Shown here piece after piece: positions 1,234 to 63,551 of a stretch of DNA of 64,000 nt. The number at the start of each line of letters is the position of its first letter. The stretch's first letter is position 1. The notes under the pieces were generated by a model, which saw only the letters and a program-made list of their open reading frames with translations, was not told the origin of the DNA and did not search any database. Origin of the DNA: Heptranchias perlo (lineage: Eukaryota); NCBI RefSeq assembly GCF_035084215.1, contig NC_090333.1, forward strand, positions 60,140,001 through 60,204,000. The letters are read 5' to 3'. The translations under genes were made by a program, and so were the position numbers.

Positions 1234-1494
1234 CTGTTTGAATTTCAACTATTGAACTCTGAGATTGGTTGCATGTGCTGTCAGATGCTATGACATATAC
1301 AGAATATAACTGGCCACACAGTAACATGGGCGTTCTACATGATGTTTCTGATGTTCTGCACGACTGGATGTTCCCATTGGGTCCTTCAGCAACGGCAGTG
1401 TACAAGAGTGCACCTTTACTATAGTCCCACGACACCAAAGCAGTATTTAGGTTACAATCCAGTCTTACATCTACATTCTGTGGGCTGCAAGGGA
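1234..1494 (-). CDS. FN3 exon type T4 ([14 protein letters not shown]...), unit U4
   Basis: 261 nt, AG/GT, phase 1-1, open frame. Confidence 0.92.
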
Positions 1495-4400
1495 CTGTAA
1501 AAAAACAAAACATTTAAAATGAATGTAAGATGATAAGTGTAAGTTCAAATAAATAAAAGGATGGATGAATTTATTAAATAGTTAATAATTCCACTGCATC
1601 TTGTCATTCAGAAAACATAGGAAACAGAATAGAAAAGTAAGCATAAAGAGTGTATCACTCATCAGTTAGTTGTACTGACTAAAACAATAGGATGTTTTGT
1701 CATTATCTGCCAGCATTGACTGAGCAGCTGTAACTGTTCCCATTCGTTTTTCCTCGATCCCACTAACGCTGACATTATGCCGAAACTTATGTCAGTTTCT
1801 ACGCCAAGCTGGCCAGTGGGAATTTACGGCCAAATTTCCTCCGGAGCTCATTTCCAACTGGATGCCGGAACGTAAAGACTGGTGCAAAACAAGTGCAAGT
1901 GCAGCATCACCAATAGGAGTAATAGCGCAAGTATAAAAAGACATGTGCTGGCTTCTCCCATGGCACCTCTTGCCTCTGTTACTCCTCTTCCTCTTCTATT
2001 ATCATGCAGAACAGGGATATGCCCATTAGGAAGGCCATTCCAGATAAGTTATCTTTAGACCCCTTTTTATACATTTGCATTACACTTGGCTTCCTCCTTT
2101 CTTCACATGATTCCCCAAGGATGTCCACTAGGATTTGTGAGTTCAATAGCTACTTCCTTAAGTACCTGGCTGTGTAATCCATATTATGTGAGTCAGGATT
2201 CCAGAATTTTTGGGTAACACTAAAATTTATTGTTTGTCCAGGCAGGTAACCCTAATAATAACATTTGTCATTTCCTTTGGGTTGAGGCGAGGGGGTTGCG
2301 GGGGTGGGGGGGGTGCTGGTGGTGTGGCTTAACCCTGGAAGTTCAGAAAATATTGCGGGAATTATCCATACAGCTTTGGAAAATTTTAGCTCCTTTATCC
2401 AGAACCTGGATCAGAGGAAACATTTTTAGGTTAAAGAGGATACAAAATCAAATGTATTCCTATTGCTGAGTTATCAGTCTAGAGATGTCAACAACATAAA
2501 GAGTAACTCCAACCATGGTCTCTTTGATATGGGTTCTATAATGTAACCTGCACCATTCACAGAGATCCATTTAACAAGAACCTTCATTTGTTAAGATGTC
2601 AAAAAATGTTTTGTAGAAATAAGTGTTACCTGCATGTACATTCACCACTGCACTCTGGGGACTTTTACAGATGTTGTCCGTTGCTACAACAGAGATTGTA
2701 TAAAATTCACCACACTGCAGATGTGGGATTTGAGTCTTTGTATCACTTGTGTTGAATAAAGCTGCGACTTGTTGACTATCTCGAGCGGTCACAGTGTATA
2801 ACTTTGCTCCATCGGTGTCATCCCACGAGAAGGAGACCGCGTTCGAATCACAGTTCAGCTCAGCTGTTAGATTCTCAGGAATGCACGGTGCTAGTTAGAA
2901 AATACAAATAAATATCAATCATCTCTCTTTCTCATAAATATCACAGTAAACTAATGTAAAACTATTTCCATAATGGATATTATTTAAGGAGAAATAGCAT
3001 TACCGGTTTGGATTTGGACAGAAGTACTTGAAATGCCATTCCGACTATAACTCAGTGTTGTTACAGTTATGTTATAGGACTGTCCACAGTGTAAATCCAG
3101 CATTTCATAGCGTGTCTCTGTTGTGTTGTGTGAATGTGTATGTCCATCACTTCCTTCTGCAGTTATATCGTATGACATAGCCCCATTAGACCGTCCCCAT
3201 GATACTACTACTCGATTAGAATTACAGTCCACATTCGCAATTATTTCATCTGGGGCACAGGGTGCTGTAGAAAAAGGAAAAATAAACATTAATATCCACA
3301 AGGTTAATGTGAGAAAATCTTGGACAAATGGTTCTTGTCAACAGCTCATAGAACGTAAATAACCTCAATAAAGCAGTCACCTTTATATTCCACACTGTGA
3401 CTACTCGATCCAGCTGCTATGTATTAGGGCCAACAAATTCCAGCTTGGGATTCTAGATCACTATTGTTGCAGCCAGTTTGACTCCCAAGTCTCTGAATGT
3501 TGAACCTTTGTATCAATGCTGCCAGATGGGCATAGAAGGATGATGATCCTGAAGTCCTTAGATTATTGCTGGTATCCACAGCGATTAGCGAGGATTGCCG
3601 TGTGGAGGCTGAACGGGGATGAAATCAGTGGATCATGGGGCTGCACTCCTGCCACTGTTTACAGTAGTACCCTGGAACCCCAATGAACAACAGAAGCTGT
3701 TCATTTAGGTTGGCAGGACAGTGTTTATGTGTCCAGATTTAGGTATGGCCGAGTTTCTTATTAAACTATGCATTTCTGAATTATCGCCAATTGGACCAGT
3801 CCAGTGGGGGGCTGTAACAGACAAGTCCCTCGCTCTATATTAATATAAGACAACATTGCGGTTGATTTTAACCCTACACATCTGTTGGTAAATAGGTGAG
3901 TGGGCAATTAAAAACTAGCAAGTCAGAAGGTTGTAGGACTCGGTTGATAGGTCAATGCAATACTGAGGCAGGACTGGTTGACCATGTGCTGTTTTTCCAA
4001 TAAGACTTTAAACCTGTGTCTGTCATATCTGTTCCAGTTGAAAGATCCCACAGCACATTTTTTGAAGAGCCAGGCGTTGTCTCACCAGGGAGTTGTCCCT
4101 TACTAACACCATCAAAACAGATTAACTTGTAATTCAGTTCAATGGCTGTTTATGAGAACTTGCTGTGTGTAAATTGGCTGCTCAATTTGCCTACCTAATG
4201 AGAATGACTTCACTTCAAAAGTAATCTCTTGATTGTGAAGTGTCTTGAGATGTCCTGAGGAGATGAAAGGTGTTATATAAATGCAGGTTCTTTCTTTCTA
4301 TATTACCTGTCTGAATCTCATAACTGGAGCCTTGGATGCTGCTGCAATTTTCACCAAAAGCGAGTACAGTGATGTTATATATTTGACTGCAGTGAAGACG

Positions 4401-7400: not shown

Positions 7401-10400
7401 CAGCCATGATCATTTTGAATGGCGGAGTAGGCCCAAAGGGCCGAATGGCCTACTCTTGCTCCTATTTTCTATGTTTCTATGTTTCTAGAATGGAAAACAA
7501 GTGTCCCTATAACCTAAATTACCAGTGTGAACATCCTTTATCTCAAACCTCATAACAGCACTTCCTACTGCGGCAGCTAACATTTCCCACACATCACAAG
7601 GTTCTTTAGAAATTTTACCTGTTTCAGTTTCAAAGATGGAAGTGTTTATACTCTGACAATAACCATCCATCGCTTTTACAGTTATGAAATATGATTGACT
7701 GCAGTGCAGATCTAGGAAATGACAGCTTGTCTCTGTTGTGTTACACATTGTTATGTGTCCGTCTTGTCCTTCTGCTGTTGTAACGTACCACACCGCACCA
7801 TCACTCTTCTCCCATGACACGGACGTACTCTTGGTGTCACAGTCTAGATTGGTGTAAATATATTGGGGTGCACATGGGGCTGAAAAATACAGAAACACAG
7901 ACCGGCTGTCACAGGACAAGAAATATCTTCAATCCAAGATGTTCAAAACCAGAAGTCACTGTCATTATTTTGTGCTTCTGAACAATATTTAATTCATTCA
8001 GATATTTTCTTTCAATAAAGGAAATCCCCTAACATATTTGACTGCACCTGTTGGAATAGTTACTAAAGAAAATCCTGGATTTTTATCAACAGGAAGTTTT
8101 TCTTTTGAAAATAAATGTCTTAATCTCATTCAAATATGGCGCTGGTCTCACAGAGAATTCCAACTAAAATCTCTGCAACCATCATTGTGTATAAAGATCA
8201 AGGCGCACTTTCACCATTCAGCATTTACACTTTACTCATTTGACTTGTGTTTCTATGGTTACACTTTCGGCTGTTGTATTTACAATCCTTCTCTGCTCTT
8301 ATATTGGATGACTCATGGAACATAGCTGACATGAAGGTGCAAATATTTCCATAGGGCCACTTGTTGACCATTCCTGCTCACTGCACTCACGACTTTCTGT
8401 TGTCGTGGAACTACTTACACTGCAGCTCAATCTAAATATTTTGTGAATTTAATGGAGATTTTTATGCTGTGTAATATTCAACAAGAAATTTTCCGGGAAT
8501 TTTCTCGAAGGTTCTTCCGATCAGCCATTGCAACTTCGGGGAAATGCATGGAACCCTTGGATAGACCCTGTGCACGGGGTTTCTGTAGAACTTCTGCCAA
8601 AGTTGCACCGGCCAATAGGGAGAACCCCTGAGGAAATTCCTGGTGGTTATCTTGGTGCATGAAGTCAGTAAATCTGAAACCAGCACAACCGGGAGGAAAT
8701 TAGACCCATTGTTTATAAAGGAGAATATATTCATGTTTGATGCACCTTTCCTCATTTGTTTCTAAGCATAAATTGTATCAAAAAGCACTAGATGACCACA
8801 TCAATGAAAAGGCATTACAGCCAAATAATTTTATTTAGACAGCAGGCCTCTGCCAAGCATATTATCGACTTCACCACCACTCTCCTCGAGGCCATCCTGC
8901 ATTCCATCCTACAAAATTCCATCTCGCACAGTGCTCCTGTCAGCCCTGTCCTCCGGTGTCTCCCCATCCCCCAAAACATTGATTTCAAATCCATTGATGA
9001 CCTCACTCCATCCTACTTCAGAAAACATCTCTAGTTCTTGATCCCAGTTTTCACCCCCTGCTCTTCTGATTCTCGATTACTTTGTGTTTCCTTAGCCCCC
9101 CTTCCCTCCCACCCACTCGTTCCGATCCACCATTGGAGACAAAGCCTTCAGCCTTCATAGACTTGCTGTCTGTAATTCGCTTTCTAAATAGCTCTGACTT
9201 GCTAACTCTCTACTTATCTTCAAAGGGCTCCTTAAAAGTTACCTCTTACACCTTGCCTTCAGACATGACTTCTAATGCTTCACCCAATTCCTGTTCAGTA
9301 TCCAAATCCTCTGTCACAATGAAGTGTTTGGGGATATTTTATGTGGAAAGTTCTTTTATAAGTGAAATTGTTGTGTTTAATTAGTGGTGCCAGTTTTAAA
9401 TCATCCTCTTCCATACCAAAGACTTACCAGAACTTAATTCAAATTTAGAGCTTTGTGAACTGTCACATACACCATCCAGTGCTGCTACAGTTAAATTATA
9501 CATCTGTCCACACTGTAGATCATTTATTTGACACTCTCTGTTGGCTGTATCACATGATACCGTGTCCCCATCGCTTCCTTCTGCTGTTGCAGAATATGAC
9601 ACTGCACCTTTAGTGTGGGTCCATGACACAGAAGCATCGTTTGTGTTACAGTCCAGCTGGACATCGAGATTCTGTGGGATGCATGATACTGAAAAGAGCA
9701 GAAAGACCAGATGAAGAGCACTTGTCCAGTAGCTTCTAAACTTTATAGAATTGTTTTCTAACGGAAATCTTCATGCAAATGTATTTGATAGATTTTCTGA
9801 TGAGCAAAATTTTGAACAATGCAGAAATCATTGTTCGTGAGATTGATACAGAAATTAGTGATAAGGGAAATTGCACTTCTCTTCAGTTACCTGTTTTCAT
9901 TATGATGGAAGGACTTTCAGCACTGTCACATGAGTCATCCTGTGCATGAACTGTTATAGTGTAGGTCTCTCCACAGCACAGGTCAGTGATATCACACAAT
10001 GTATCATTAGTGCTGCATTGTTGCACATTGCTTCCTTCTGCAGTCGCAGTGTATGATATCGCACCTTCACTTAACTCCCATGAGACTGCCATAAATCCAG
10101 CATCACAGTCCACATGAGCATCAACTTTCTGTGGGACACATGGTACTGCAAGAAGAAAATTCATAAACATCACCTACTGGAAAAATACTGAGTCGCATAA
10201 CTGTCTATAAGATACAAAAATGACAATATTCCAACTAATTCTAGATTCTCGTGCAGAATTACCTGTTTTAATTGTAAAAGCAGAGCTGTGTGAGCTGTTA
10301 CATTGCATGCGGATTGCCTGTACAGTTATATAGTAGTTCCGTCCACAATACACATCTGTGATCTCACATTCAGTGTTTGTGGCATTGCATGAGGCCCTAT

Positions 10401-13400
10401 GGCCATTGCTTCCTTCTCCTGTTACAATGTATGACTCTGTGCCATTACTGGGATCCCAAAACACAGAAACATTATTACTTTCACAGTTTATGTGAGCTAC
10501 CACGTTCTGTGGGATACAAGGCGCTGCAGAAAGGAGAAAACACTTTGTCGATTTAATGCTGCATACAAATGTCTAAAAGCTGCATAATATCAAGCATTAC
10601 TGCGTCAGTACGAGCTTTGATCTGTATCGATAGGATTAACTGCTGGATGCTTGAGTTTGTAACAAAGAATAACTGTAGCAATTATCAATGTACAAAGTGT
10701 GAGGTGGTGCTTATTGATATACAGTTTTGTGACACTGTCAATTTTAAATTTTCCTGTCTTTTAATTACTTTTTTCTGTTTATTTTCATAAAAAGAAAACC
10801 AAGGTTTTACCTGTTTGTATTTCAAAAGCTGGACTTGGTAAACTGGTACAATTCTCATCCATTGCTAATATAGTTATACTGTATATCTGGCCACAAGGGA
10901 GGTCTGTGATCTCACAGTTTGTTTCTGTTGCATTGCATGGATACCTGTCTCCTTCCATTCCTTCTGCAATTGCGGTATAGAACATTGCGCCGTCACTCTG
11001 CTCCCACAATACTGACGTTGTTTGTGTTGTACAGTCCAAATAAGCACTTACATTCTGAGGACTGCAAGGGGCTGAAGATATCAGAGAAACAAGATGGATA
11101 AAGGCACAGTCAGCTTTTTACTGGAATTCAAGAATGTGCATTTACAAGTAGCATTTGAAAAATGTTAACATAAAGTCTGAAAGCTTTTCATTCTGTTGCC
11201 ATGAAAAGGTGCTACGTGCAGGAAAAGTGAAATATCAGAATCTAAATGATCTTATCTGGTGACTATGTAAATTGTCTGCTGCTTTGAACAATGTCCCCTT
11301 CATTAGCACGATAATTCTATTAAGTGAGTCCAATCATCACTATTGCTTTCCATGTTCACTTGCCCTCTGAGAGATAAAACAGTGCAATGATTAATTCTGA
11401 CCTCGGCTCACTAAACTGTCTACTTACTGAAAGATCAGCAAAGCGTATGTGAGGGCACGTGTGAAAGATATAGTATCCAGTTCGTAAGTTAAGGAGGTCA
11501 CCTTGTTACATTTTCTGGGTTACACTATCATATATTGTACAAGAAAGATAAACCTAATTAACTAGAGACCAGTTAGTCTAATGTCAATTGTGGGCAGACT
11601 CTTAGAATCCATAATTTGAGGTAAAATTGGTGAGCATTTAGAAATGCATGGTTTATTCGAGGACAGGCAGCATGGTTTTGTTAAATTTACAACTATGACT
11701 TGCCTTTAACAGTTTTTTCAAGAAATGACTGATTGTATAGATAAAGGGAATTCAGCAAATTTGACACTCTGCACGCATTCAAACGGGAGCTGGACCGGTT
11801 CTTGACTGGGGCAGAGATCGCATCCGATGGGTGAGTGGTTTTACAGATATCACATGGTCCATGTGATCTCCTGGACTGATTTCGATAGCTTGAGGGGGTC
11901 AGAAAGGTATTTTCCAGGGTATTTTTTCCCTTATTGGCCCTGGGTTTTTCTCTTTTTTTTCCTCTCCCAGCAGATTACTTGGCTGTGGGACGATGTTGGG
12001 GGTGGGGGGAGGGGGAGAGGTGTGGTGAGTTGGGGCAGAGGGTTAGTAGGAAGCGTCCAGTCACGATGCTCCAGCCATCATGTGTGGGGCAGGCTTGATG
12101 GGCCAGCTGGTCATTTCCTGATGTCATTTTCATATATAAATATTTTAGTGGATTTAGTGGATGTGAATTTTCAGAAGGTGTTTGATAAGGTGTCTCATAA
12201 GAGGCTTGTTAGAAAAAATTCAGACATATGGTGTAAGAGGAAATGTAGCAACATGGATAGAAAACTGGTTGACTGAAAAGAAACAAAGAGCTAGTGTACA
12301 TGGTATTGGTTGCATTGGAGAAGCGTTGGAAGTGGCACACCCAGAGGTCAGTGCTGGGTCCACTTTTGTCCTCCGTATATATGGATGCTTTGGACTTACT
12401 TTAGTATCATCAACACATCTGCTAAGAGGTTTGGCAAACAGCTAGGAAGACTGCAAAGGACTCCCTGAAGACTTAAAGAGCTTATGCGGATGGGCTGACA
12501 GGTGCCAGATGCAATTTATTATGGATAAGTAATACATTTTGGTGGGAAAATAAGGATTGAGAGTACATAATGGAAGACAGTGAATAATGTGGATGAACAG
12601 AGACACCTGGGGTAACTGATACTTTTTGCATAGTATTATAAGTCAACACACTGCAGTACTATACTAGTTAACAAAAAATGCTGGAAGCTTATTTTTTTGG
12701 TCTACGTAGTACAGTATGTCAGTAAAACAAGGAATTACCTGTTTGAATTTCAACTATTGAGCTCTGAGATTGGTTGCATGTGCTGTCAGATGCAATGACA
12801 TATACAGAATATAACTGGCCACACAGTAACATGGGCGTTCTACATGATGTTTCTGATGTTCTGCACGACTGGATGTTCCCATTGGGTCCTTCAGTAATGG
12901 CAGTGTACCAGAGTGCACCTTTACTATAGTCCCACGACACCAAAGCAGTATTTAGGTTACAATCCAGTCTTACATCTACATTCTGTGGGTTGCAAGGGAC
13001 TGAAAAACACCAAAAAATTTAAAATGAATGTAAGACAATAGAATCAACCATCAGTGTAAGTTCAAATAATTAAAAGGATGGATGAATTTACTAAATAGTC
13101 AATAATTCCACTCACCTTGTCATTGTAAAAACACAGGAAACAGAATAGGAAATTACAGAATAAAGGGTGTAGTCTGTGCATCACTCATCAATTACTGGCA
13201 CTGACTAAAACAATAGGATGTTTTGTCATTATCTGCCAGCATTGACTGGGCCATTTTAATAGTTCCCATTCATTTTTCTTCGATCTCATTGACGCTGACA
13301 TTATGCCGAAACTTACATCAGTTTCTACACTGAGCTGGTCAATGGGAACTAACACCCAAATTTCCTGTGGAGCTCATTTCCACATGCCGGAACATAAAAA

Positions 13401-52400: not shown

Positions 52401-55400
52401 TGGTTGCATGTGCTGTCAGATGCAATGACATATACAGAATATAACTGGCCACACAGTAACATGGGCGTTCTACATGATGTTTCTGATGTTCTGCACGACT
52501 GGATGTTCCCATTGGGTCCTTCAGCAATGGCAGTGTACCAGAGTGCACCTTTACTATAGTCCCACGACACCAAAGCAGTATTTAGGTTACAATCCAGTCT
52601 TACATCTACATTCTGTGGGTCGCAAGGGACTGAAAAAAAATTGAAATTGAAAATGGATGTAGGATGACAGAATCAACCGTCAGTGTAATTTGAAATGAAT
52701 AAATGGACAAATTAATTCACTAAATAATTTACTAAATAACAATTCGATAGCAACTTTTCATTCTAACAGGTGGAAAGCAAACAGAAAATTAAAGTATACG
52801 TAGTGTATCAATTAATTGACAATAAATACCATAAATGTAAAAGTATTTGATAGCTCTTATAGAGTTGCATTAATTCTGGACCATGACAGCCTTAACAAGT
52901 GAGTATCAGACTAAAACAATAGGATGTTATGTCATTATGTTATGATAGCATTGAGCATTCTAACTGTTCCCATTCATTTTTCCTTCTGTAGTTGATATTA
53001 ATGTACATAGAATCATAGAAAGGTTACAGCACGGAAGGAGGCCATTCCGCCCATCGAGTCCATGCAGGCTCAATGCAAGAGCAATCTAGCTAGTCCCACT
53101 CCCCCGCCATATCCCCATACCCCTCCAAATTTTTTCCTTTCAAGTACTTATCCAGTTCCCTTTTGAAAGCCATAATTGAATCTGCCTCCACCACCCTCTT
53201 AGGCAGTGTATTCCAGATCCCAACCACTGTGTAAAAAAGTTTTTCTTCATATCACCTTTGGTTCTTTTGCCAATCACTTCAAATCTATGTCCTCTGGTTC
53301 TTGACCCTTCTGCCAATGGAAACAGTTTCTCTCTATCTACTCTGTCTAGACCCTTCATGATTTTGCATACCTCCATCAAATCTCCTCGCAACCTTCTCTG
53401 TTCCAAGGAGAACAACCCCAAGAAGAACCTTCTCCAGTCTATCCACATAACTGAAGTCCCTCATCCCTGCAATCATTCTGGTAAATCTCTTCTGCAACCT
53501 CTCTAAGGTCTTCAGATCTTTCCTAAAGTGCAGTGCCCAGAACTGGACACAATACTCCAGTTGTAGCCGAACCAGTGTTTTATAAAGGTTCATCATGACT
53601 TCCATACTTTTGTACTCTGTGCCTCTATTTATAAAGCCCAGGATCCCGTATGCTTTGTTAACCGCTTTCTCAACCTGCCCTGCCACCTTCAACGACTTGT
53701 GCACATATACCCCCAGATCTCTCTGTTCCTGTACCCCTTTTAGAATTGTGCCCTCTAGTTTATATTGCCTCTCCTTGTTCTTCCTACCGAAATGTATCAC
53801 TTTGCATTTTTCTGCGTTAAATTTAATCTGCCACGTGTCCACCCATGCCACTAGCCTGTCTATATCCTCTTGAAGTCTATCACTATCCTCCTCACTGTTC
53901 ACTACTCTTCCAAGTTTCGTGTCATCTGCAAATTTTGAAATTTGCCCTGTACACCTAAGTCCAAGTCATTAATATATATCAAGAAAAGCAGTGGTCCCAG
54001 CACCAACCCCTGGGGAACACCACTGTGCACCTCCCTTCGGTCCGAAAAACAACCGTTCACCACTACTCTGTTTCCTGTCCCTTAGCCAATTCTGTATCCA
54101 TGTTGCTCCTGCCCCCTTTATTCCATGGGCCGCAATCTTGATGACAAGCCTACCGTGCGGCACTTTATTAAACATGAAATATAATTTGCAAACTTTATCT
54201 GTTGATCAGATCATTTCTAATTTTGATCGTGTGTGTGAACTGGGGACGGGGCAGGACAGGAATATTATTGTTTAATTGCTCAGTCGTGACTAGTTGTATT
54301 AAGTGACAAAAAGTATGAAGATACTTTGGGCTCAATTTTGAAATGGTGGCGGGTTGGCAGCGGGGGGGGTGAAGGTGCGTGTGGCAAACCCGAATATAAA
54401 AAAAACTTATCTTTCCCGATGAGATTGTAATGTAATTGATGGTGATTAAAGTTGTTTCCAGGATTCGCGCCCGGCAGCCAGCCTGATTGACAGGCTGGCT
54501 GCTGACAGGAGCTGCAACGCCGAGGTGGGCGGGGAGGGGGGGGGGTGGAAAGAGAAAAAGAGGGAGAGCGAGACGTCATCTGGTGCTGGAACAGAGAGTG
54601 GAGGGCACTGAAGATCGGGGGGGGGCGGGCGGAGGGAGAGGAAGATTGGGGGGAGGGAGAGAAAGATCGGGGGAGGGAGGGGAAGATTGGGGGTAGGGAG
54701 AGTGAGAGGAAGATTGGGGGGAGGGAGAGAGGGGGAGATCCGGGGAGGGGGAGAGGAGGGAGGGGAAGATCAAGGGGGAACGGTGAGGGGAGATCCGGGG
54801 GGGCAGAGAGGGAGACATCGGGAGCAGAGAGAGACGTCGGAGAGGGGGGACATCGGGGGCTGAGAGGGACATCAGACATCAGAGCAGGGGGATGCAGGTG
54901 ACACCAGTGGAAAGGTAGGTTCATTTCATTTTTTAAACTTTGTGCAATGGTTTTTTATTTAATTTATTTACTTTATTTTTGCTTGATCCGGCCAGGCGTG
55001 AATCGGAAGCCATGGGAAAGCCGCCCAGGAAAGTTTAAAATCGTTTTAACTACCTACTATGTCAGAAATAAAGTACCTTAAGTACCTCAAATAGGTACAT
55101 TTGGTTCTTTAACTATCATCCCGCTGGCTTTAATTGCTGGCGGGGCTTCTGCATTCGGGAAGCACGCACGCACACAGGCGCGTCTGTGGGAAACCCAGAA
55201 GTCGGCGGGTTGGGGCCGGTTTCCTCACCTGCTCGGGATTTTCCCAATTTTTGCAGCCCCCCCTGCTCCCAACGCACCCGCAATTCCATTTGAAAATCGG
55301 GGTCTTTGTCTCGGCACTGAACGTATTGTAAGAACAAACTATCTTTACCTGTGTCAGTTGTAACACTTGAACCTATGGAACTGGTGCATTTCTCATTCAT

Positions 55401-58400
55401 TGCTGCCACATTCATAGTCAATGTCTCTCCACATTCTACCTCTTTCACTTCATAGCTTGTGTTAGTTGTGTTGTATGAAGATTTGTAACTATCACCTCCT
55501 TTAGCTGTGACAATGTATGACTCTGCTCCTTTACTCTGGTCCCAGTGCAATGAGATAATGTTATTAGCACAATCCAGATCAGCTTTAGCAGATTGAGGGG
55601 GGCAAGGGACTGGAGAGAAAATTAATAAAAAATGTTAAAAACAAAACACATTATCTCTCATTTCAACACTGATGTACTTAATTCCCTGTTCACATTTAAT
55701 TCAAGGATTTTGCTTACTGGTTTGTGTAATGGTAATAAACTATAATGTCTAAAATAGGTCATCGAAATGTTTAAAAAATGAAGACTCTGTGTGAAATAAA
55801 TTGAGTTTTCTTTAAATTGCAATTTCTGAAATCACAGGCAATGAGGAATGTCACAATATCAAAATAACAGTTGAAATTCTGACCCTGCACATTTGATTTG
55901 CACATCGAGCAAATGTTCGGATAATTAGAGGGTTAGTACTTTAATTGTGGGAATAGGCCTTGTGTGCACTGTTTGCTGAACTTCCATGTAGTAAAAATGT
56001 GCTGTAATTTATTTCACATATTTACCTTGTGAAGATCATTACATGGTTTGTAAGTACAGCTACAGCATTTGGAGAACTGAAGGAATTCAGTTCCAATTAT
56101 GTGACTCGGGCTTCAGGAATCTTTGGTCGGCTACAAGTTTGGCTGAGTTGCTTATCAACCAAATACCAACAATAAGGCAATAACTCATGTCTTTTCTCCT
56201 GTGAATCCAGACATTGTCAAGAACACTCAGGCTTGTTTCCTTTGGACCAGTATTGCAGATTAATTACTGGGTAGAGTGCAATAGAGATTTTAATACAAGA
56301 ATACAAGTTGTTAGATTATCTATGATAATGGACATGACCGACGGTTCAAAACAATAAGACAGTAGACAAGATAAATGATGCCAAGATTGGATTTTAAAAA
56401 CACACAGATTTTAGGAGAAGAGAGAGACTGACCGGGATAAAAAGGTCCACAGTTTAATGTTGCTGGGAAAGAATGAGTTAGAGGGGGAGACAGTTCAGAA
56501 TGCAGGAAGGAGAAAGAGCAGTGGGATGGTGCCTTAGGAGGAATGAGAAAAGAAAGTTTAGAGGAGCAACAATAATAGTACTAATAAAATCAAGGCAGAT
56601 TCTTCAACAAGATCTAGATTATTGGGTTGAAAAGGAGATTTGCAGAAGTTTTGAGAAACAACTTTTACAGGAACCAGAAATGGCAAGACGACAGCAGATG
56701 ACACTTCTTTTCAATAAAGTTATGTCTATTAGCTCAATCAGTGGATTTTAAGGATTAATGAGGAGACAAAGTTGCTTTGGGATATTTCAGACTTATCGAA
56801 AAGAAAAGTGGCAGGAGGAGCATAAGCACTGACTGAATGGCTCATTTCTGTGCTGTAAATTCCGTTTAATTCTATGTAAAAGACAGCAGAACTGCAGGGA
56901 TGACTGAACCAAGATGGAGTGCTATGGTCTGGAAAGAGTTAAGTATGAAACTTTCCACGCCAGTTAGAGTGACATTAGTCACTTCATTGACATGAACAGA
57001 AGAATCACAGGAATAAATGCCAATTTGGATTAGGGAAATAATATAAACATATTGGGCTAGATTTTGCTGTAAAAATAATGGTGAGCTATTCATGTGCAAA
57101 TCGGACAGTAACTTCCGACGACCGCATATGCGCAGTTAAACGCGGAAATCCGGGAGTTCTTTCCGAGATGCATTCTCCCTCCGTAAGCTGCATGAAAACG
57201 GCATCTCACGGTCTGGCTCCCCATTTAATTGAATGGCGTGAAGTTTCTGTACTGACCTGATAGATACGAACTAAAATCGTCAACAAAAGTTACATCTAGT
57301 CATTTCAAGTCTAAGTATCCATTTAACGGTGTGGTAAGTCTTAATTACTGCCAAACAACCTCTCTGGCACTGAAAATTAGCTTTAACAAGTGTGGAGCCT
57401 CATTCCTTCAGATTTTAATTATTATTGGACATTTAAAAAAAAAATTAAATAATTTTTTTTGTTACTTTTTCTTTCTGTCTCTTTTATCTCTGTCTCTTGA
57501 TTCAATCTTTTTTAGCCTCTCTATTTTGCTTTCTGTACCTGATTTGACATTGAATTCACAATTCTAATCTACACTTCCTGGTTCAATCTCTGTTCAATCT
57601 CTGTGCTGCTAGTAACGATTCTTCAATCTGATTGGTTAAGGAGATACACAGCTGCTTGCCCTGTTCACACAGGTCCCACATGCCCTGTAGAGGGCGCCGC
57701 GCTGAACGGCTGTCTAATTTCCAGGAACTTGCCGTGCAAAAGCTCATAGAAAGTCTATGGGCAAGTGCAAGTCTAACGAACAGCTGGTGTCCTTCGTTCG
57801 CCGCTCAAAGCAAAATCCGGCCCATTACAGTAATAAAGCACTATGACAAATCATTTGATTGAACATCCTCAAAATTACAGTTAATATGCCATTAACTGGC
57901 ATTTCCTTTGTTGAATTTGTAAGATTCACAGAATACATGAGTACTGTGGTGCCAGTAACTCCAGAAGATCAAAATATTAGGCAGGCTATTTGTTTGAAAT
58001 GTTAGAAGGCTGGTCCTCGGGTATAGGAGTACTGTCCTACCTAGTTCTCACATGGAGATCATGGCTTTGTAAGCAACGACACAGGCAGCAGAGAATTACG
58101 ATTATGTGACTCAAGCTTCAAAGCAATTTTGGCTGACTACAAAATTTAGTGAAGTGTTTGTCCAGGTGGGTACCACCGATAATAAGATTCGTCATTTCTT
58201 TTGGAGAATGCTACCCCATAACTGAGAAAATATTGTCAGTCGTATTCATGCAGCTTTGGGAAATGTTAGCTCCGTTATCCAGGACCTCTTTAATACACCA
58301 AGCCATGTTTCCATTGGATCACTGGAAGTGTAACAGGTTAAAGAGGATACAGAAATACCATGCATTCCTGTAGCTTTGTCAGACCAAAGATATCAGCAAC

Positions 58401-61400
58401 ATAAAGAGTAACTCCAGCTGTGGACTCTCTAACAAGAGTTATGCAATTTATCCTGCATTATGCACAGAGACCCATTTATTCAAGAGCATAAGTTAAAAAC
58501 ACATAGCATTTAAATACTGCCTGTGGAATGCAACACTTCATTTGTTAAGGTGTCACAAAATGCTTTATGGAAATGAGTGTTACCTGCATGTACATTCACC
58601 ACTGCACTCTGGGGACTTTTACAGATATTGTCTGTTGCTAGAACAGAGATTGTATAATATTCACCACACTGTAGGTGTGGGATTTGAGCCTTTGTATCAC
58701 TTGTATTGAATAAAGCTGTGACTCTTTGACTATCTCGGGCAGTCACAGTGTATAACTTTGCTCCATCGGTGTCATCCCACGAGAAGGAGACCGCGTTCGA
58801 ATCACAGTTCAGCTCAGCTGTTAGATTCTCAGGAATGCACGGTGCTAGTTAGAAAATATAAATAAATATCAATCCTCTCTCTGTCCTGTAAGTATAATAA
58901 CAAATGAATGTAAAACTATTTCCATAGTGGATATTATTTAAGGAGAAATAGCATTACCGGTTTGGATTTGGACAGAGGTACTTGCAATGTCATTCCAGCC
59001 ATAACTCAATGTTGTTATGGTTATTGTATAGGGCTGTCCACAATGTAAATCCAACATTTCATGGCGTGTCTCTGTTGTGTTGTGTGTGTGTGTATGTCCG
59101 TCACTTCCTTCTGCAGTTACACCGTATGAAATCGCCCCATTAATCCGTCCCCATGACACTACTACTCGATTAGAATTACAGTCCACATTCGCAATTATTT
59201 CCTCTGGGGCGCACGGTGCTGTGTAAAAGGAAAAGTATAATTTCATGAATACCTGAAGAGATACTATGATAAAATATATTGACAAATAAATGGAATACAT
59301 CATGCTGATCACATAATTAAAATAAAATGATAATCACTTTGACTTTGAACAAACTATCCACTCATTTCATTATTCAGTGCCAGAGGACTATTTTGCTGGT
59401 GTGTGAAACCCTTTTTGAATCTAAACATCTCTATTGAGCTTTCCACATTGTTAAGGAACTGTGGCCATGAGGATAGGTAGGTAGGTCTCTATCAATGCCA
59501 CATAAAATGGCATTCAGTAGAGAATATCCCAGTGATAACCATCTCTTCAATTTTCCCTCCTCCCACCACAATGAGGAAAAAGGCCAGCATCGTCTTAGCA
59601 TCTCCCTACAGTGATGTGGGCAAGATTGTAAATTCAGAAAATTATGGGCAGGCATCCATATCCCACCACATCACAGTTGGTGTACCAGCTCAGTGCATCA
59701 TTGCACTGACTGTCCCTGGATTCTGAATACTAAACACTCTGCATCATCTCATGAAATAATCTCATTAGCCAGCCCAGTTTGGAAACAAAGATATATGTAA
59801 TAGTAGCATTGTCATTACATCATCTTGTTTGATGATCAGCAGTACTATTAAAATATTAGTTCAAACTAGGGAAATACTGACAATATCACTTGGGAAAAGT
59901 TCAGACAAAAGCAATAGCATCTGCTGCCACAGCTACTATTCATCCGAGTGAAGTCTCTGTTCGAGCTGCTCCCAACTTTCCCAGGAGGAGTCTGCTCAAA
60001 CATTTTCTGAACATAATTTGAATTTCAGGAGCTGTATCATTATGTCTTTTAGATCCAGCACACAAGAAGCACTCATACTCCTTTGGTTATGGTTATAACT
60101 GTTACTTATGAAGAGGACTTGACGGAATAAAGAACATCATCCCTCTAACAGCTGCTAGAAGTCTAACAGAAACCAACTTTGGTAAGTTTGGTCTAGTTCT
60201 CATTGGAATTCTCAAGATAAAAGTGCTTTAAAGTTTATATTAAGTAATAAGTCCACACTCACACTCCAAAACATTATATTCATAAAATGTAGCGAATAGA
60301 AAGGTTAATTATTCTGCAACATTTTACATAATGCACTCACGCAATACAACTCTCTTAAAAAATCTCTATTAGTCCACAGCCTTTCATATAAAAGCTATTA
60401 CCTTCTCAGTAACAGAGAATCCATCTTTACCAGCTCCTCATAAGCCATTCCTCTTTTTTACAGGCTTTCAAAGGACTCAAAAATAGCATTCTACAAACGA
60501 TGCAATGTAAGATGTAAGATGTTACAAGCATTAAAAGTAATATGTAATTCATTACCTGTCCCAATATCATAACTGGAACTTTGTTTGCTGTTGCAATTAT
60601 CATCAAAGGCTTGTGCGGTGATGGTATACGTTTGACTACAGTGAAGAGCTGGGATCTGACAATTTATTTCAGACGTGGTACAGGTGGTGGTGTGTCCATC
60701 ACTCCCCTCTGCTGTTACTGTATATGATACTGTGCGATTACTCAGCTCCCATGATATCAAGGCAGTATTATTCTCAATATAGGCTTCCACATTCTGAGGG
60801 GGACATGGCACTTGGTTGGGAAAAAAAACAGAAAAATAAATGTCATGAGTTGTGTCATCAGTGTACAGAAGTTCTAATGAAGTACTCTGAAGACAAAGTC
60901 AGAATAAACAACAAATGGTGAGCACCTTACTGGCTCTAGAGTTTTGAGATCCCATTTAGAGGGATTTCATTTGAATCCTAACATGGACTGTGAAGTGAAT
61001 TTGATTCATGGGGCCCTTCACTAGTTTCTGAACCAGCTACTTTTACTGGTTAACTGGTAGCACTACATTTGAAAAGCGGGGGAGGTAATGGGACAAGTTA
61101 AGAAACAAAAGATGGGTCTAAGAGAGCTGTAAATGGCAACAGCAGAAGCATTACCAGCAGCTGCAGTCCCACACAAAATAAAATTGGGAGCAGTGGTTAT
61201 GATCTGAAGTTATTGAAATCAATTTTGAGTCTGGAAGGTTGTAAAGAGCCTAATTGAAAGATGAGGTGGGCTGTTCCTCATGCTTCTGTTGAGCTTCATT
61301 GGAACAGTGTAAGAGGCCGAGGACAGAGAGGTCAGAGTAGGAGTGGGATGTGGAATTAAAATGACAAGCGATTGGCAGGTCAGGGGCATGCTTGCGGACT

Positions 61401-63551
61401 GAGCGGAGGTGTTCAGCAAAGCGATAACCCGATCTGCATTTGGTCTCTCCAATGTTGAGGAGATCGCATTGTGAGCAGCAAATACAGTATATTAAATTGA
61501 AAGAAATACAAGTAAACCACTGTTTCACCTGGAAGAAGTGTTGGGGCCCTGGATGATGGGAAGGGAGGAGGTGAAAGGGCAGGTGTTGCATCTCTTGTGC
61601 TCACACGGGAAGGTGCCGTGGGGAGGAAAGCGGGTGTTGGGGGTGATGGAAGAGTGGACTAGGGTGTCGCGGACGGAGCAGTCCTTTCAGAATGCTGAAA
61701 GGTGAGGGGAGGGGAAGATGTGTTTGGTGGTAGGATCGCGCTGGAGGTGGCAGAAATGGCGGAGGATGATGCATTGAATGTGGTGGCAGGGGGGGTGGAA
61801 GGTGAGGACAAGGGGAACCCTATCATGGTTCTGGAAGGGAGGGGAAGGGGTGAGGGCAGAAGTGCGGGAAATGGGACGGACACAGTCGAGGGCCCTGTCA
61901 ACTACAGCAAATAATACAAAACAGGCTCAAGAGACAACTAGCTATGTTTCTGGTAGAAAAGAGGATAAACAATTATCACAAGATGGCAAAGATCAATCAA
62001 AAAAGGTGAGGGGTTTGTTGGACCAAATGGCCTTTTCCTGTTCCCAAAATGTTCTTTATTGTTATCTTTACATGTTATTGTTTTCTTACATTTTCTACAT
62101 CCCTTCCAATATATCTTCATTGCTTTTTTTATTCCTTTATCTCTCTCTATGGTTCCAAATCTCTAACTTTCTTTCTCTTATCAGTATTGACTTTTTCTGA
62201 CCTCCCCCCTCTCTATATCTTTCCAACTGTCTGTGTTCCTCTTAGTATCTTTGACCATTATCGATCTGCCAATATTCTGTCACATCTTTGATGAATTTAA
62301 TCACAGGACATGTTTCTCAGTGACCAAAAAAAAGCCACAATATTGGAATGATGACCAGTTATAATGCTATCCTTAAAATCTCATCTCTATTTGAGCAAAA
62401 CTGTTACTCAGAATTGTTTGTAATTAAAACAATATCAGAACTCTATATGATTCAAAGGAAGGCCTTTGGGAATCAGTATGGATTTTTGTTCTGCATCCAC
62501 CTTGTTCTTCTTATTGGTCCTCACAGCACATCACTGACATATTGGGGTAGATCTTCGTCTTTACCTGGGCGTTAAGCATCACCTGGGCAAAGCGCAGATA
62601 GGAAAGTCTGGTGGTGAGGATAACCGATCGGTAACAGAACCGGCCTGATTTTCCTTTCGTTGAAATTGATGCTCAGGGGTAAAGATGGGAATCTAGCCCA
62701 CTGTTAGTGAAAGAAGTGGAAACTCAGGCATGTGTCAGGTGACACTTGAATGATTAATTAGAGTAACTGAGATGGTAAAACATAAGCGTGTGGAAGATGA
62801 ACATGTACTGTTCTATAAACAATTTTGCGGTGGTGCTGAAATATTTGTGAAGTTCAGGAAATTAATCTCCCATGTGGATTGCAAGACAGTGAGTCTAATT
62901 TTAGGGCAGTTGCTTTCTCACTCCCCCATCTAATCATTCCACACTGCTTCCCCTGACCCATCTGAATAATTCAACCTCCAGTGATAAGGTTGGAGCCTGA
63001 TGCCAATCCTTGCGCTACTCTGAATTATTTCACTAGATTCTAAACCTGTATGTGTCCAAAATTAAGAAATTACAAAAATGTAAATAATAAACAGAAGTAG
63101 CTTAGTGATTAGCAATTTACACTATTAACCAAAATAATTTTGAAGCTAATAATTGTGCCCTTCGCATCATGGATTACTTGACTCAATAGCATTTATTTTT
63201 GCATAAAGCACAAATAAACACTGCAACTTACCCTTAACTTATTTAGATTTTCATTATTTTAATAGTCAAATTGGCTTTGAAATTAAATACCTGAATGAAT
63301 TTCCAACCCCGAAGTGTGTAAGCTGCTGCAGTGACCAGCCTGTGCCACTATAGTCACTGAATAATCCTCTCCACATGGGAGATCGGAGATTGCACAGCTC
63401 GAGTCTGTTGTGTTGCATGACAGTCTGTCTCCACTTTTCATCTCCAAAAACGCAATGTATGAATCAGCTCCATCACTTTTCATCCACTCCAATGATGCCA
63501 GATCCAAAGCACAATCCACACGAGCATTAACAAGTACCGGAGCACAGGGAA
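1234..63551 (-). CDS. FNDC7: Large multi-exon FNDC7-like (fndc7-related) extracellular protein with tandem Cys-rich FN3 domains; 41 exons in window, gene incomplete at both ends
   Basis: Each exon translates to the pattern xPCxPxNV..DC...VSW...GA..Y...AEG..G...C......C....L.CG..Y.I.V.A....C.S..S.....T/G that I recognise as FNDC7-type FN3. All have canonical AG/GT sites and phase 1-1. Family assignment only: strict orthology to FNDC7 is not established. Confidence 0.8.
2630..2890 (-). CDS. FN3 exon type T3 ([14 protein letters not shown]...), unit U4
   Basis: 261 nt, AG/GT, phase 1-1, open frame. Confidence 0.92.
3004..3264 (-). CDS. FN3 exon type T2 ([14 protein letters not shown]...), unit U4
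   Basis: 261 nt, AG/GT, phase 1-1, open frame. Confidence 0.92.
3920..4298 (+). mobile_element. DeuSINE (SacSINE1/AmnSINE1-like); paralogous copies at about 16350-16728, 27830-28167, 44262-44680
   Basis: Recognisable Deu-domain and tail (cttgctgtgtgtaaattggctgc...cacttcaaaagta...tatataaatgcag..tctttctttc); tRNA-like A box tggctcagttgg in the 44.27 kb copy. Confidence 0.7.
4307..4561 (-). CDS. FN3 exon type T1 ([12 protein letters not shown]...), unit U4
   Basis: 255 nt, AG/GT, phase 1-1, open frame. Confidence 0.92.
5457..6890 (+). mobile_element. 5'-truncated Penelope-like element (RT C-terminus plus GIY-YIG endonuclease, pLTR)
   Basis: [18 protein letters not shown] region and [23 protein letters not shown] motif; 12-bp TSD tgcagttataca at 5445-5456 and 6891-6902. 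Confidence 0.92.
6764..6800 (+). ncRNA. Minimal type I hammerhead ribozyme motif in the Penelope pLTR
   Basis: tcac-CTGACGA-a-gggga(taa)tctcc-GAAA-gct-t-gtga: stem I tcac/gtga, stem II hairpin, palindromic AGCT helix III. Confidence 0.7.
7619..7879 (-). CDS. FN3 exon type T9 ([14 protein letters not shown]...), unit U3
   Basis: 261 nt, AG/GT, phase 1-1, open frame. Confidence 0.92.
9428..9688 (-). CDS. FN3 exon type T8 ([14 protein letters not shown]...), unit U3
   Basis: 261 nt, AG/GT, phase 1-1, open frame. Confidence 0.92.
9891..10145 (-). CDS. FN3 exon type T7 ([14 protein letters not shown]...), unit U3
   Basis: 255 nt, AG/GT, phase 1-1, open frame. Confidence 0.92.
10263..10523 (-). 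CDS. FN3 exon type T6 ([14 protein letters not shown]...), unit U3
   Basis: 261 nt, AG/GT, phase 1-1, open frame. Confidence 0.92.
10811..11071 (-). CDS. FN3 exon type T5 ([14 protein letters not shown]...), unit U3
   Basis: 261 nt, AG/GT, phase 1-1, open frame. Confidence 0.92.
12739..12999 (-). CDS. FN3 exon type T4, unit U3
   Basis: 261 nt, AG/GT, phase 1-1, open frame. Confidence 0.92.
13968..14130 (-). mobile_element. CR1 3'-end fragment
   Basis: (acataaga)n tail followed by ataggagcaggagtaggcc 3' UTR motif. Confidence 0.65.
14285..14825 (+). mobile_element. CR1 fragments (ORF2 middle joined to 3' UTR)
   Basis: [28 protein letters not shown] peptide; 14578-14825 nearly repeats 7240-7485. 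Confidence 0.8.
15014..15274 (-). CDS. FN3 exon type T3, unit U3
   Basis: 261 nt, AG/GT, phase 1-1, open frame. Confidence 0.92.
15388..15648 (-). CDS. FN3 exon type T2, unit U3
   Basis: 261 nt, AG/GT, phase 1-1, open frame. Confidence 0.92.
16737..16991 (-). CDS. FN3 exon type T1, unit U3
   Basis: 255 nt, AG/GT, phase 1-1, open frame. Confidence 0.92.
17513..17773 (-). CDS. FN3 exon type T9, unit U2
   Basis: 261 nt, AG/GT, phase 1-1, open frame. Confidence 0.92.
17991..20012 (-). mobile_element. CR1 LINE, 5' part deleted; same insertion as 29424-33125
   Basis: RT-region ORFs 18434-18961 and 19817-20017; same left junction as the U1 copy. Confidence 0.85.
18994..19218 (+). mobile_element. 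Short CR1 3'-end insertion nested in the CR1
   Basis: (TTCTATGA)n tail; the paralogous site at about 30465 is empty. Confidence 0.7.
20118..21350 (-). mobile_element. 5'-truncated non-LTR retrotransposon (RT), clade unassigned
   Basis: [18 protein letters not shown] and FADD motifs (ORFs 21245-21592, 20510-21244); A-rich 3' end; empty site in U3 (about 8460) and U1 (about 33490). Confidence 0.85.
22327..22587 (-). CDS. FN3 exon type T8, unit U2
   Basis: 261 nt, AG/GT, phase 1-1, open frame. Confidence 0.92.
22790..23044 (-). CDS. FN3 exon type T7, unit U2
   Basis: 255 nt, AG/GT, phase 1-1, open frame. Confidence 0.92.
23187..23447 (-). CDS. FN3 exon type T6, unit U2
   Basis: 261 nt, AG/GT, phase 1-1, open frame. 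Confidence 0.92.
23786..24046 (-). CDS. FN3 exon type T5, unit U2
   Basis: 261 nt, AG/GT, phase 1-1, open frame. Confidence 0.92.
25651..25911 (-). CDS. FN3 exon type T4, unit U2
   Basis: 261 nt, AG/GT, phase 1-1, open frame. Confidence 0.92.
26498..26758 (-). CDS. FN3 exon type T3, unit U2
   Basis: 261 nt, AG/GT, phase 1-1, open frame. Confidence 0.92.
26872..27132 (-). CDS. FN3 exon type T2, unit U2
   Basis: 261 nt, AG/GT, phase 1-1, open frame. Confidence 0.92.
28175..28429 (-). CDS. FN3 exon type T1, unit U2
   Basis: 255 nt, AG/GT, phase 1-1, open frame. Confidence 0.92.
28946..29206 (-). CDS. FN3 exon type T9, unit U1
   Basis: 261 nt, AG/GT, phase 1-1, open frame. Confidence 0.92.
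29424..33125 (-). mobile_element. Near full-length degenerate CR1 LINE (ORF1 SGNH esterase, ORF2 APE endonuclease and RT)
   Basis: ORF1 HVGTND..DGLH (32465-33052); APE (31833-32141); RT GVPQG/SKFAD (30092-30439); multiple stops and frameshifts. Confidence 0.9.
32203..32297 (-). mobile_element. Solo Penelope pLTR fragment containing a minimal hammerhead motif (32256-32292)
   Basis: Reverse-complement match to about 6760-6855; direct repeat ttgtttttaaca at 32191-32202 and 32298-32309. Confidence 0.8.
33739..36652 (+). mobile_element. Decayed PIF/Harbinger DNA transposon with a Myb/SANT-like gene
   Basis: ORF 33998-34192 ([34 protein letters not shown]) resembles the Harbinger Myb/SANT protein; ATT duplication at 33736-33738 and 36653-36655; empty site gacccattgtttat in U2 and U3. 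Confidence 0.75.
37377..37637 (-). CDS. FN3 exon type T8, unit U1
   Basis: 261 nt, AG/GT, phase 1-1, open frame. Confidence 0.92.
37840..38094 (-). CDS. FN3 exon type T7, unit U1
   Basis: 255 nt, AG/GT, phase 1-1, open frame. Confidence 0.92.
38237..38497 (-). CDS. FN3 exon type T6, unit U1
   Basis: 261 nt, AG/GT, phase 1-1, open frame. Confidence 0.92.
39869..40129 (-). CDS. FN3 exon type T5, unit U1
   Basis: 261 nt, AG/GT, phase 1-1, open frame. Confidence 0.92.
41416..41676 (-). CDS. FN3 exon type T4 (VACDPQNV...), unit U1
   Basis: 261 nt, AG/GT, phase 1-1, open frame. Confidence 0.92.
42226..42486 (-). CDS. FN3 exon type T3, unit U1
   Basis: 261 nt, AG/GT, phase 1-1, open frame. Confidence 0.92.
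42600..42860 (-). CDS. FN3 exon type T2, unit U1
   Basis: 261 nt, AG/GT, phase 1-1, open frame. Confidence 0.92.
44687..44941 (-). CDS. FN3 exon type T1, unit U1
   Basis: 255 nt, AG/GT, phase 1-1, open frame. Confidence 0.92.
46856..47116 (-). CDS. FN3 exon type T9, unit U0
   Basis: 261 nt, AG/GT, phase 1-1, open frame ([14 protein letters not shown]...). Confidence 0.92.
47393..47502 (-). pseudogene. Probable decayed FN3 pseudo-exon (homologues start at 33352 and 8325)
   Basis: tttgttcctctgtatcAG followed by APCI..(frameshift)..[10 protein letters not shown]; contains stops and frameshifts. Confidence 0.45.
48265..48465 (+). mobile_element. CR1 3'-end fragment
   Basis: tggaatgcactgcc..ttcaaaaaggaattggataaatacttg..ggctgaatgggctccttctgtgctgtatgattc. 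Confidence 0.6.
48851..49105 (-). CDS. FN3 exon type T7, unit U0
   Basis: 255 nt, AG/GT, phase 1-1, open frame. Confidence 0.92.
49253..49513 (-). CDS. FN3 exon type T6, unit U0
   Basis: 261 nt, AG/GT (donor GTGATT rather than GTAATT), phase 1-1, open frame. Confidence 0.9.
49843..50103 (-). CDS. FN3 exon type T5, unit U0
   Basis: 261 nt, AG/GT, phase 1-1, open frame. Confidence 0.92.
50485..51865 (+). mobile_element. Degenerate CR1 LINE (RT to 3' UTR)
   Basis: Decayed RT motifs and ggctaaatggcctccttctgt..ttctatg 3' end; longer relative of the T4-T5 intron CR1 fragments in U1-U4. Confidence 0.75.
52369..52629 (-). CDS. FN3 exon type T4, unit U0
   Basis: 261 nt, AG/GT, phase 1-1, open frame. 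Confidence 0.92.
53005..54172 (-). mobile_element. 5'-truncated CR1 LINE
   Basis: ORFs 53969-54175, 53333-53902 and 53140-53448 carry CR1 RT C-terminal motifs; (catagaat)n tail. Confidence 0.85.
54328..55304. mobile_element. Non-autonomous Harbinger-like element (MITE) with G-rich interior
   Basis: Imperfect TIRs gggctcaattttgaaatgg / ccatttgaaaatcggggtc, TTT duplication; right subterminal region 55115-55280 homologous to 36464-36630. Confidence 0.7.
55349..55609 (-). CDS. FN3 exon, single-copy type ([17 protein letters not shown]...), between T3 and T4 of U0
   Basis: 261 nt, AG/GT, phase 1-1, open frame; no counterpart seen in U1-U4. Confidence 0.9.
57054..57823. mobile_element. MITE (Harbinger-type)
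   Basis: 15-bp TIR gggctagattttgct / agcaaaatccggccc flanked by ATT duplication. Confidence 0.75.
58584..58844 (-). CDS. FN3 exon type T3, unit U0
   Basis: 261 nt, AG/GT, phase 1-1, open frame. Confidence 0.92.
58958..59218 (-). CDS. FN3 exon type T2 (diverged copy), unit U0
   Basis: 261 nt, AG/GT, phase 1-1, open frame ([14 protein letters not shown]...). Confidence 0.92.
60556..60810 (-). CDS. FN3 exon type T1 (diverged copy), unit U0
   Basis: 255 nt, AG/GT, phase 1-1, open frame ([15 protein letters not shown]...). Confidence 0.92.
61215..61900 (-). mobile_element. Degenerate Penelope-like element fragment (GIY-YIG)
   Basis: ORF 61250-61591 [32 protein letters not shown]. Confidence 0.8.
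62544..62699. mobile_element. Short MITE
   Basis: Imperfect TIR ggggtagatcttcgtctttacc / ggtaaagatgggaatctagccc; att/act flanks. Confidence 0.55.
63291..63551 (-). CDS. FN3 exon, single-copy type ([17 protein letters not shown]...)
   Basis: 261 nt, AG/GT, phase 1-1, open frame. Confidence 0.9.

Follow-up and report, generated by a model that had tools for sequence, protein, structure and literature searches.

The stretch of Heptranchias perlo DNA analysed here (the window; 64,000 nucleotides, G000:C9:60140001-60204000 of a 3.25-Gb genome) very probably forms the middle of one gene for a single secreted protein, a chain of 80 FN3 domains in which a nine-domain block is present about six times. 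The core of the original prediction, an intact, spliced, predicted-secreted giant related to FNDC7 with a nine-domain super-repeat, was supported. FN3 super-repeats are an already known kind of architecture; new are the reconstruction of the 80-domain chain, an elasmobranch 9-mer that looks to have evolved in concert, and disulfide staples predicted between neighbouring domains. In a literature search covering few subscription journals, no paper was found on the size, repeats or disulfides of the giant protein.

Reconstruction of the gene

The window was examined with 100 kb of flank on each side, and FN3 exons were recovered by motif scan and profile search (Pfam label fn3). The window holds 41 of them, spanning 63551 to 1234 of the minus strand, each 255 or 261 nt long, bounded by AG and GT, in phase 1 and free of stops. 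Their total is 3,549 codons, with 779 in a T1-T9 unit, exactly the exon number, total and unit length that had been predicted. The exon order (X, T1-T3, a unique domain U, T4-T7, T9, three T1-T9 units and T1-T4) was also as predicted, with the first T1 being diverged, as were the lack of stops and frameshifts in the exons and the transposon remains in the introns. The predicted continuation past the left edge was found as 17 further repeat exons and six C-terminal FN3 exons. Coordinates of the features are listed in the table.

In the 264 kb searched, the complete gene consists of two leader exons, 80 FN3 exons and a tail exon (83 coding exons over 156 kb), and AG/GT borders, phase 1 and freedom from stops hold for 80 of the 80 FN3 exons. 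The joined ORF encodes 6,997 aa (756 kDa), and the conceptual protein has a pI of 4.3, 419 Cys, 164 N-glycan sequons and an S/T-rich composition. The layout begins with 16 single-copy domains, X, T1a-T2-T3, U and a unit without T8, and ends with five complete T4-to-T3 units and six C-terminal domains. The first two FN3 domains are basic (+8 and +6, respectively) and the rest of the rod is acidic. Annotation of the flanks, which had been proposed as a check, yielded the leader exons at C9:60252576 and 60252365 (located by homology, matching catshark P0012), with a predicted signal peptide, and a stop codon 28 residues past the last FN3 domain in a short tail without a hydrophobic stretch. Hydrophobicity windows over the conceptual 6,997-aa chain revealed neither a transmembrane segment nor a GPI-type tail, and the most hydrophobic 19-mer sits within FN3 domain 6. 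The RGD motif is absent from the array, and no other domain types were detected.

Three other identities were considered and rejected. A gel-forming mucin was rejected on the absence of VWD, PTS and cystine-knot domains, all but the leader and the 28-residue tail being FN3; a receptor tyrosine phosphatase or other membrane receptor (the name carried by P0012) on the lack of a transmembrane helix or phosphatase domain and the position of the stop; and a titin-like muscle protein on the leader exon, the presence of FN3 in all 80 exons and the sequons.

Table. Features of the giant FN3 gene in and around the window (positions are those of the window unless prefixed by C9)
Feature	Position	Strand	Remark
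Exons 17-57 of the 80 FN3 exons	1234..63551	-	part of 156-kb gene
Exon 17 (X), final single-copy FN3 of N-terminal arm	63291..63551	-	74% match in catshark P0012; covered by X2 contig
Exon 18, diverged T1 (T1a)	60556..60810	-	below 75% class threshold
Exons 19-20, T2 and T3	58584..59218	-
Exon 21, unique domain U	55349..55609	-	covered by X2 contig, flanked by other sequence on both sides
Exons 22-26, T4, T5, T6, T7, T9 (T8 missing)	46856..52629	-	T4-T5 splice in X2 contig
Exons 27-35, full T1-T9 unit	28946..44941	-	779 aa, 49 Cys
Exons 36-44, full T1-T9 unit	17513..28429	-	49 Cys
Exons 45-53, full T1-T9 unit	7619..16991	-	51 Cys (two extra)
Exons 54-57, T1-T4	1234..4561	-
T1 exons with C13-equivalent Cys, next T2 without C74	44687..44941, 28175-28429, 16737-16991, 4307-4561	-
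Longest array intron, 8,170 nt	29207..37376	.	enlarged by transposon remains; homologous introns 532-4,553 nt
Giant gene start (ATG)	C9:60252576	-	beyond right window edge
Giant gene end (last codon)	C9:60096465	-	beyond left window edge

The introns of the window carry retrotransposon remains (RVT_1, GDSL-type ORF1), and a Pfam match was obtained for three of ten intronic ORFs. LINE remains with a GDSL/SGNH esterase-type ORF1 (PF13472) and RVT_1 fragments lie at 31200-33061 (-) and 20510-21244 (-). An intronic open frame of 498 codons at 5030-6526 (+) gave no Pfam match at 1e-3 and may be a LINE fragment joined with the terminal part of a Penelope-type element; a GC-rich insertion with several open frames at 33971-36400, likewise without a Pfam match, may be a Harbinger-type DNA transposon. 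Searches for a T8 remnant in the first, T8-less unit and for dead exon copies within introns found none. The T2-T3 intron is 113 nt long in all six units (e.g. 2891-3003), and its copies fall into two sequence groups, about 4-8% different within and 15-21% between groups, with a mosaic unlike that of the flanking exons.

Splicing was assessed with four contig sets (coded runs X1-X4) presumed to be RNA, a status which is a guess. Set X2 comes from a related organism, with exons about 5% different, and its contigs skip the introns at exact exon borders; one contig of 1,223 nt joins T8-T9-T1-T2 and another joins T4-T5. Both U and X are covered by X2 contigs, and X3 covers exons with 0-4 differences. 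Both sides of at least four of the nine junction types were found among the matches listed for these presumed-RNA contigs. None of the contigs listed spans the whole gene.

NCBI splits the giant into several 'FNDC7-like' models of 729-1,068 aa, some of which skip exons. Models P0001, P0048 and P0174 lie on the same contig and comparable fragments are annotated in other sharks and rays, as would be expected if the array consisted of several independent 'FNDC7-like' genes, each encoding 700-1,100 aa; a full-length transcript is also missing from the contigs. Against this, the models both begin and stop within domains, and the leader, first, penultimate and last FN3 and tail exons occur in one copy each in the 264 kb (the penultimate exon is single-copy in a whole-genome search as well), so that separate first and last exons for the units were not found. 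Since the spliced contigs cross unit borders, the separate-gene reading is further disfavoured, and 19 of the 184 proteins compared are single chains matching the shark's first domain as well as its penultimate one. An assembly duplication was also rejected: the units are at least 4% different throughout the array, and it contains no N gap. A cluster of separate genes or an assembly artefact is thus highly improbable, and the array is treated below as one gene. Which domains of the C75-C77 group are left out of the C-terminal models P0001, P0003 and P0006 varies between sharks, by alternative splicing or annotation error.

A short gene, in which nine FN3 exons but no first or last exon were located, lies at C9:60289250-60303500 (-), 37 kb upstream and in tandem with the giant, to which it is 27-36% identical per domain. 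PRP38-family exons at C9:60057665-60072010 (+) are arranged tail-to-tail with the giant, and a Sec1-family exon at C9:60350087 lies past the short paralogue; these neighbours occupy the strand opposite to that of the two FNDC7-type genes. In human, FNDC7 lies between PRPF38B and STXBP3. The shark flanks, assigned at family level, fit this neighbourhood, and the position is common to the short paralogue. FNDC7 and STXBP3 are also adjacent in one SNP row of PMC4488244, in the part of that source available. Based on its position, its size and the human sequence, the short paralogue is probably the FNDC7 orthologue. The giant, at 6,997 aa, is outside the size of FNDC7 proper (about 800 aa, at most nine FN3 domains).

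Relatives, age and evolution of the super-repeat

A profile of 21 exons was run against 1.84 billion representative proteins; it retrieved many long chains, from 2,000 to 5,143 aa, in which as many as 57 stretches matched. Thirty clusters, picked by score, were looked up: 28 belong to the family, from bichir, sturgeon, gar, teleosts (several named fndc7rs1 or fndc7b), lungfish, caecilian, newt and frogs, and two are unrelated FN3 giants. All 28 family clusters and all named matches are from fishes or amphibians, which suggests that the giant may be absent from amniotes. Searches of a cluster atlas returned generic FN3 or FNDC7 clusters only, with taxa at phylum level, and gave no name for the short paralogue.

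Orthologues of 2,500-5,100 aa were found in gar, bichir, teleosts (fndc7rs1), lungfish and amphibians, the 19 both-end matches marking such proteins as orthologues of the giant and not of the short FNDC7. None of the 184 proteins matched the markers of the short paralogue, and 60 of them have the diagnostic penultimate domain followed by a truncated last domain. The first shark domain is 34-47% identical in gar, bichir, newt and lungfish, and the three Cys-free or Cys-poor FN3 domains after the leader are homologous to those of the fish and amphibian giants. The fndc7rs1/fndc7b giants (e.g. XP_067309533.1, XP_015211037 and XP_078524471.1) are automatic 'uncharacterized' models. They share with the shark chain the three N-terminal domains, the six-Cys FN3 array, the penultimate domain and a basic motif near the C-terminus, and differ from it in having at most 57 matched stretches against 80 domains with a nine-domain period. 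No exon for the extra C-terminal FN3 domain of ray-finned fishes was found in 56 kb downstream of the shark gene.

The ends of the chain are thus kept from shark to newt, with a middle of about 24 to 74 domains and periods of 3, 4, 5, 7, 9 or none. Gar, bichir and newt have aperiodic giants, and periods of 3, 4, 5 and 7/16 were found in Pseudorasbora, sturgeon, Brienomyrus and Misgurnus, respectively; from these aperiodic giants and differing periods it follows that giant size is old and that super-repeats arose repeatedly.

In the shark, a 75% identity threshold sorted the repeat domains into nine classes, with mean identities of 92-96% between same-type domains and 41% between different types. 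Autocorrelation peaks at lags 9, 18 and 27 (0.89, 0.87 and 0.84, respectively), other lags giving about 0.41. The nine domains recur in unchanged order in ray models, which wrap round the unit: Hypanus P0172 runs from T5 to T4 to T8, Narcine likewise wraps, and Rhinoraja has three T7-T3 runs. Same-type identity within species is 0.94 in H. perlo, 0.90 in Hypanus, 0.86 in Narcine and 0.85 in Rhinoraja, against 0.77-0.78 between H. perlo and the three rays. In single-domain trees (short alignments, modest support) the copies mostly cluster by species, with the exception of the edge copies of T2 and T3, which cluster across rays. Judged from sequence, the 9-mer is homogenised within species, the pattern of concerted evolution; unequal crossing-over or conversion would maintain the array in blocks.

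The inter-unit dS is 0.09, with values of 0.054-0.100, and dN/dS, a comparison proposed with the original prediction, is 0.31 over 142 same-type exon pairs; the repeat units are under purifying selection. T7 alone gave a dN/dS of 1.16. None of the 142 pairs is identical, introns between units are 10-16% diverged with differing insertions, and no inter-unit stretch of at least 300 nt with more than 96% identity was found. A recent expansion was rejected on the exon pairs and introns, and by these sequence comparisons the 9-mer is old, without sign of fresh expansion. The N-terminal arm varies by species: five FN3 domains of catshark P0012 are missing at C9:60211496-60213750, between exons 13 and 14, where a search for their remnants found none.

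Two parts of the original prediction were not supported: the protein is not lineage-specific, as giant orthologues occur across fishes and amphibians (the proposed count of orthologue domains yielding the 57 stretches above) and the 9-mer is tandem in rays, and it shows no sign of still expanding by whole-block duplication. Its description as an undescribed system stands insofar as no functional description was found in print, and falls insofar as orthologues of the same architecture already exist as 'uncharacterized' models.

Cysteine pairing and predicted inter-domain staples

An AlphaFold2 model of P0174 (52 sequences) has eight tandem beta-sandwich domains with a mean pLDDT of 89.8 and a pTM of 0.54. 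Searches of the PDB by sequence and by fold gave FN3 chains as best matches, none closer than the generic FN3 level. Each domain has six conserved cysteines at positions 2, 13, 45, 52, 59 and 74 (columns 87-95% conserved in 1,806 domains), and the domain junctions are direct, with 13 residues from C74 to the next domain in 1,006 cases.

Joint losses of cysteines were counted in 103 family proteins and the shark exons, with 16 redundant or same-species entries left out; this gave 607 non-redundant of 1,330 domain triples, and the counts below are not fully independent events. Loss of C52 was accompanied by loss of C45 in 64 of 64 cases. Loss of C13 was accompanied by loss of C74 in the next domain (C74') in 38 of 39 cases, against a background of 7/568, and never by loss of its own C59 (0/39); where C74 was lost, the previous C13 was also lost in 35 of 38 cases and its own C2 in none (0/38). 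The paired C13/C74' loss recurs at differing positions in newt, lungfish, gar, bichir and frogs. Within the window, T1a lacks C13, in step with the missing C74 of the following domain. Losses of C59 or of the C2 that follows it are extremely rare, and joint loss was seen in 2/7 cases of the full set, one being shark exon 12 without C59 followed by exon 13 without C2, and in 0/3 of the non-redundant set.

By this co-variation, disulfide staples are likely to link neighbouring domains encoded on different exons. Each domain would be closed internally by one disulfide, C45-C52, and tied to the following domain by two staples, of which C13-C74' is strongly indicated and C59-C2' weakly, because C59 and C2' are almost never lost. 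If all disulfides were instead intra-domain (C2-C74, C13-C59, C45-C52), the chain would be a flexible bead string. The strand order of the model and known FN3 topology place both of the former pairs at the same pole of one domain, and the moderate pTM also suits a flexible chain; the joint losses of C13 with its own C59 and of C74 with its own C2 are nil, and mismatched pairs number 89 under the intra-domain model against 12 under the inter-domain one, so that a wholly intra-domain pairing is quite unlikely. In a literature search to which subscription journals were mostly closed, no published example of a double disulfide staple between FN3 domains was found. The predicted staples join adjacent exons and would constrain duplication or splicing of the array.

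T1 has C13 and T2 lacks C74, which leaves 49 Cys per unit with one unpaired, a predicted spare thiol of each unit. The spare Cys is present in all six T1 copies here, in Heterodontus and in five rays, and missing from the basking-shark and zebra-shark copies compared. Units of Brienomyrus are also odd (29 Cys), and those of sturgeon and Pseudorasbora are mostly even. A seventh Cys was observed in three repeat domains (9891-10145, 16737-16991 and C9:60136904-60137158), the same one in two T7 copies; these are possibly extra free thiols and a trace of inter-unit conversion.

With an FN3 domain length of 3.5 nm, the stapled 80-domain chain is predicted to be roughly 280 nm long and to resist unfolding. 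The spare T1 cysteine would permit cross-links about every nine domains, and the first two domains, being basic, would bind acidic glycans or adjacent rods. Titin A-band super-repeats have 7 and 11 domains, and the shark protein resembles them as a giant chain with a multi-domain period, titin being among the top PDB matches. Titin is intracellular, mixes Ig and FN3 domains and has a kinase domain; the shark giant differs in its predicted signal peptide, FN3-only composition, one exon per domain, sequons and predicted staples. Of the titin-like character originally proposed, the periodic layout alone stood, as the predicted inter-domain disulfides would oppose a titin-like stretch. The shark chain resembles fibronectin and tenascin as extracellular beads-on-a-string FN3 rods and differs in having no RGD and no other domain types. 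Fibronectin and tenascin FN3 domains are not known to contain disulfides.

Expression in other species and candidate role

In the available parts of the sources cited here, zebrafish fndc7a and fndc7rs4 mark neuromast support cells, the rs4 ring including mantle cells (PMC6363392), and fndc7a serves as a neuromast marker (PMC11789645; 10.1101/2024.01.29.577871). Zebrafish fndc7a, rs1, rs2 and rs4 fall in module 1, a lateral-line module, with si:dkey-205h13.2 and tnfsf10l3, and the ear matrix genes tecta, tectb, zpld1a and otog in module 4 (PMC9851615). si:dkey-205h13.2 is the cupula mucin, the loss of which shortens the cupula (PMC11765562); in neuromast cluster 5, fndc7rs4 is up and the mucin down (PMC6363392). 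The published fndc7rs4 reverse primer translates to a six-residue motif that lies, in cyprinid giants, within the diagnostic penultimate domain, 113 residues before the C-terminus, and the forward primer has no exact match; from this motif, rs4 may represent the 3' portion of a giant gene. In paddlefish, an 'FNDC7' locus shows 33-fold enrichment in operculum (lateral line) over fin (PMC5429088), and this locus may be the short paralogue. The short mouse Fndc7 has a 138-fold enrichment in supporting cells of the cochlea (PMC5137903).

By analogy with these patterns, the stapled, secreted, acidic glycoprotein rod might be a fibrous scaffold in the cupula of the lateral line or in a related sensory jelly, a tentative proposal held at somewhat less than even confidence; a cupula or sensory-jelly role as such is held at that level or slightly below. 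Secretion would be by neuromast support and mantle cells, as expression in other species indicates. The mouse cochlea has no cupula, yet its short Fndc7 is support-cell enriched, which counts against a cupula role. A parallel is the cupula mucin 'Muc5AC' (PMC11765562), a Cys-rich chain of tandem domains secreted by neuromast support cells, as is predicted for the giant, and placed in the same expression module as the zebrafish fndc7rs genes. The domain number of this mucin is likewise highest in cartilaginous fishes (skate 27, catshark 19), according to the part of PMC11765562 available. It differs in that its CysD domains are unrelated to FN3 and that its function is established by mutants. 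Mammalian FNDC7 is likewise a secreted, FN3-only protein with Cys-rich domains, in the same genomic neighbourhood and with support-cell expression (PMC5137903), and is nine times shorter (buffalo, 811 aa and 13 exons; PMC8615036). As far as their available text goes, PMC9750624 and PMC8615036 cover the short mammalian FNDC7 only.

The same stapled rod could be a general surface or matrix glycoprotein of skin, gill, gut mucus or basement-membrane-like layers, with neuromasts as one site among others. Low-level spliced contigs in bulk runs of two organisms, the acidic, S/T-rich composition with heavy predicted glycosylation, and orthologues in frogs with terrestrial adults agree with such a role; the zebrafish whole-embryo data, in a table spanning ear and lateral-line cells only, group fndc7rs1/2/4 with lateral-line markers, and the paddlefish enrichment is over fin. 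We regard the general matrix role, the main rival of the scaffold reading, as doubtful. That the rod is a long spacer between the three N-terminal domains and the C-terminal pair, a tether or ligand presenter in which length alone matters, would suit the ends kept from shark to newt, the variable middle and the basic first two domains on an acidic rod. It is improbable, given that the 9-mer of sharks and rays keeps its nine types and their order, with a dN/dS of 0.31, that the spare Cys is kept and that there is no membrane anchor to tether from; in part it is compatible with the scaffold reading.

In its widest form, which is unlikely as a whole, the scaffold reading would make the giant the missing fibrous component of the cupula and ampullary jelly: an FN3 chain that two disulfide staples at almost all junctions make inextensible, cross-linked through a single spare Cys in each unit. 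Every fish lineage would re-tune its length and mesh size by duplicating blocks of exons whose staples fit together, and amniotes would have lost it along with the lateral line, keeping only the short FNDC7 in the ear.

The mechanical tuning of the lateral line depends on the cupula, the protein make-up of which is called largely unknown in the available part of PMC11765562. The giant gene is a concrete cupula candidate, hidden by fragmenting annotation or by mucin-, fibronectin- and phosphatase-like names. It further offers a clear example, within one vertebrate gene, of super-repeats forming repeatedly and independently, with periods of 3, 4, 5, 7 and 9, together with concerted evolution.
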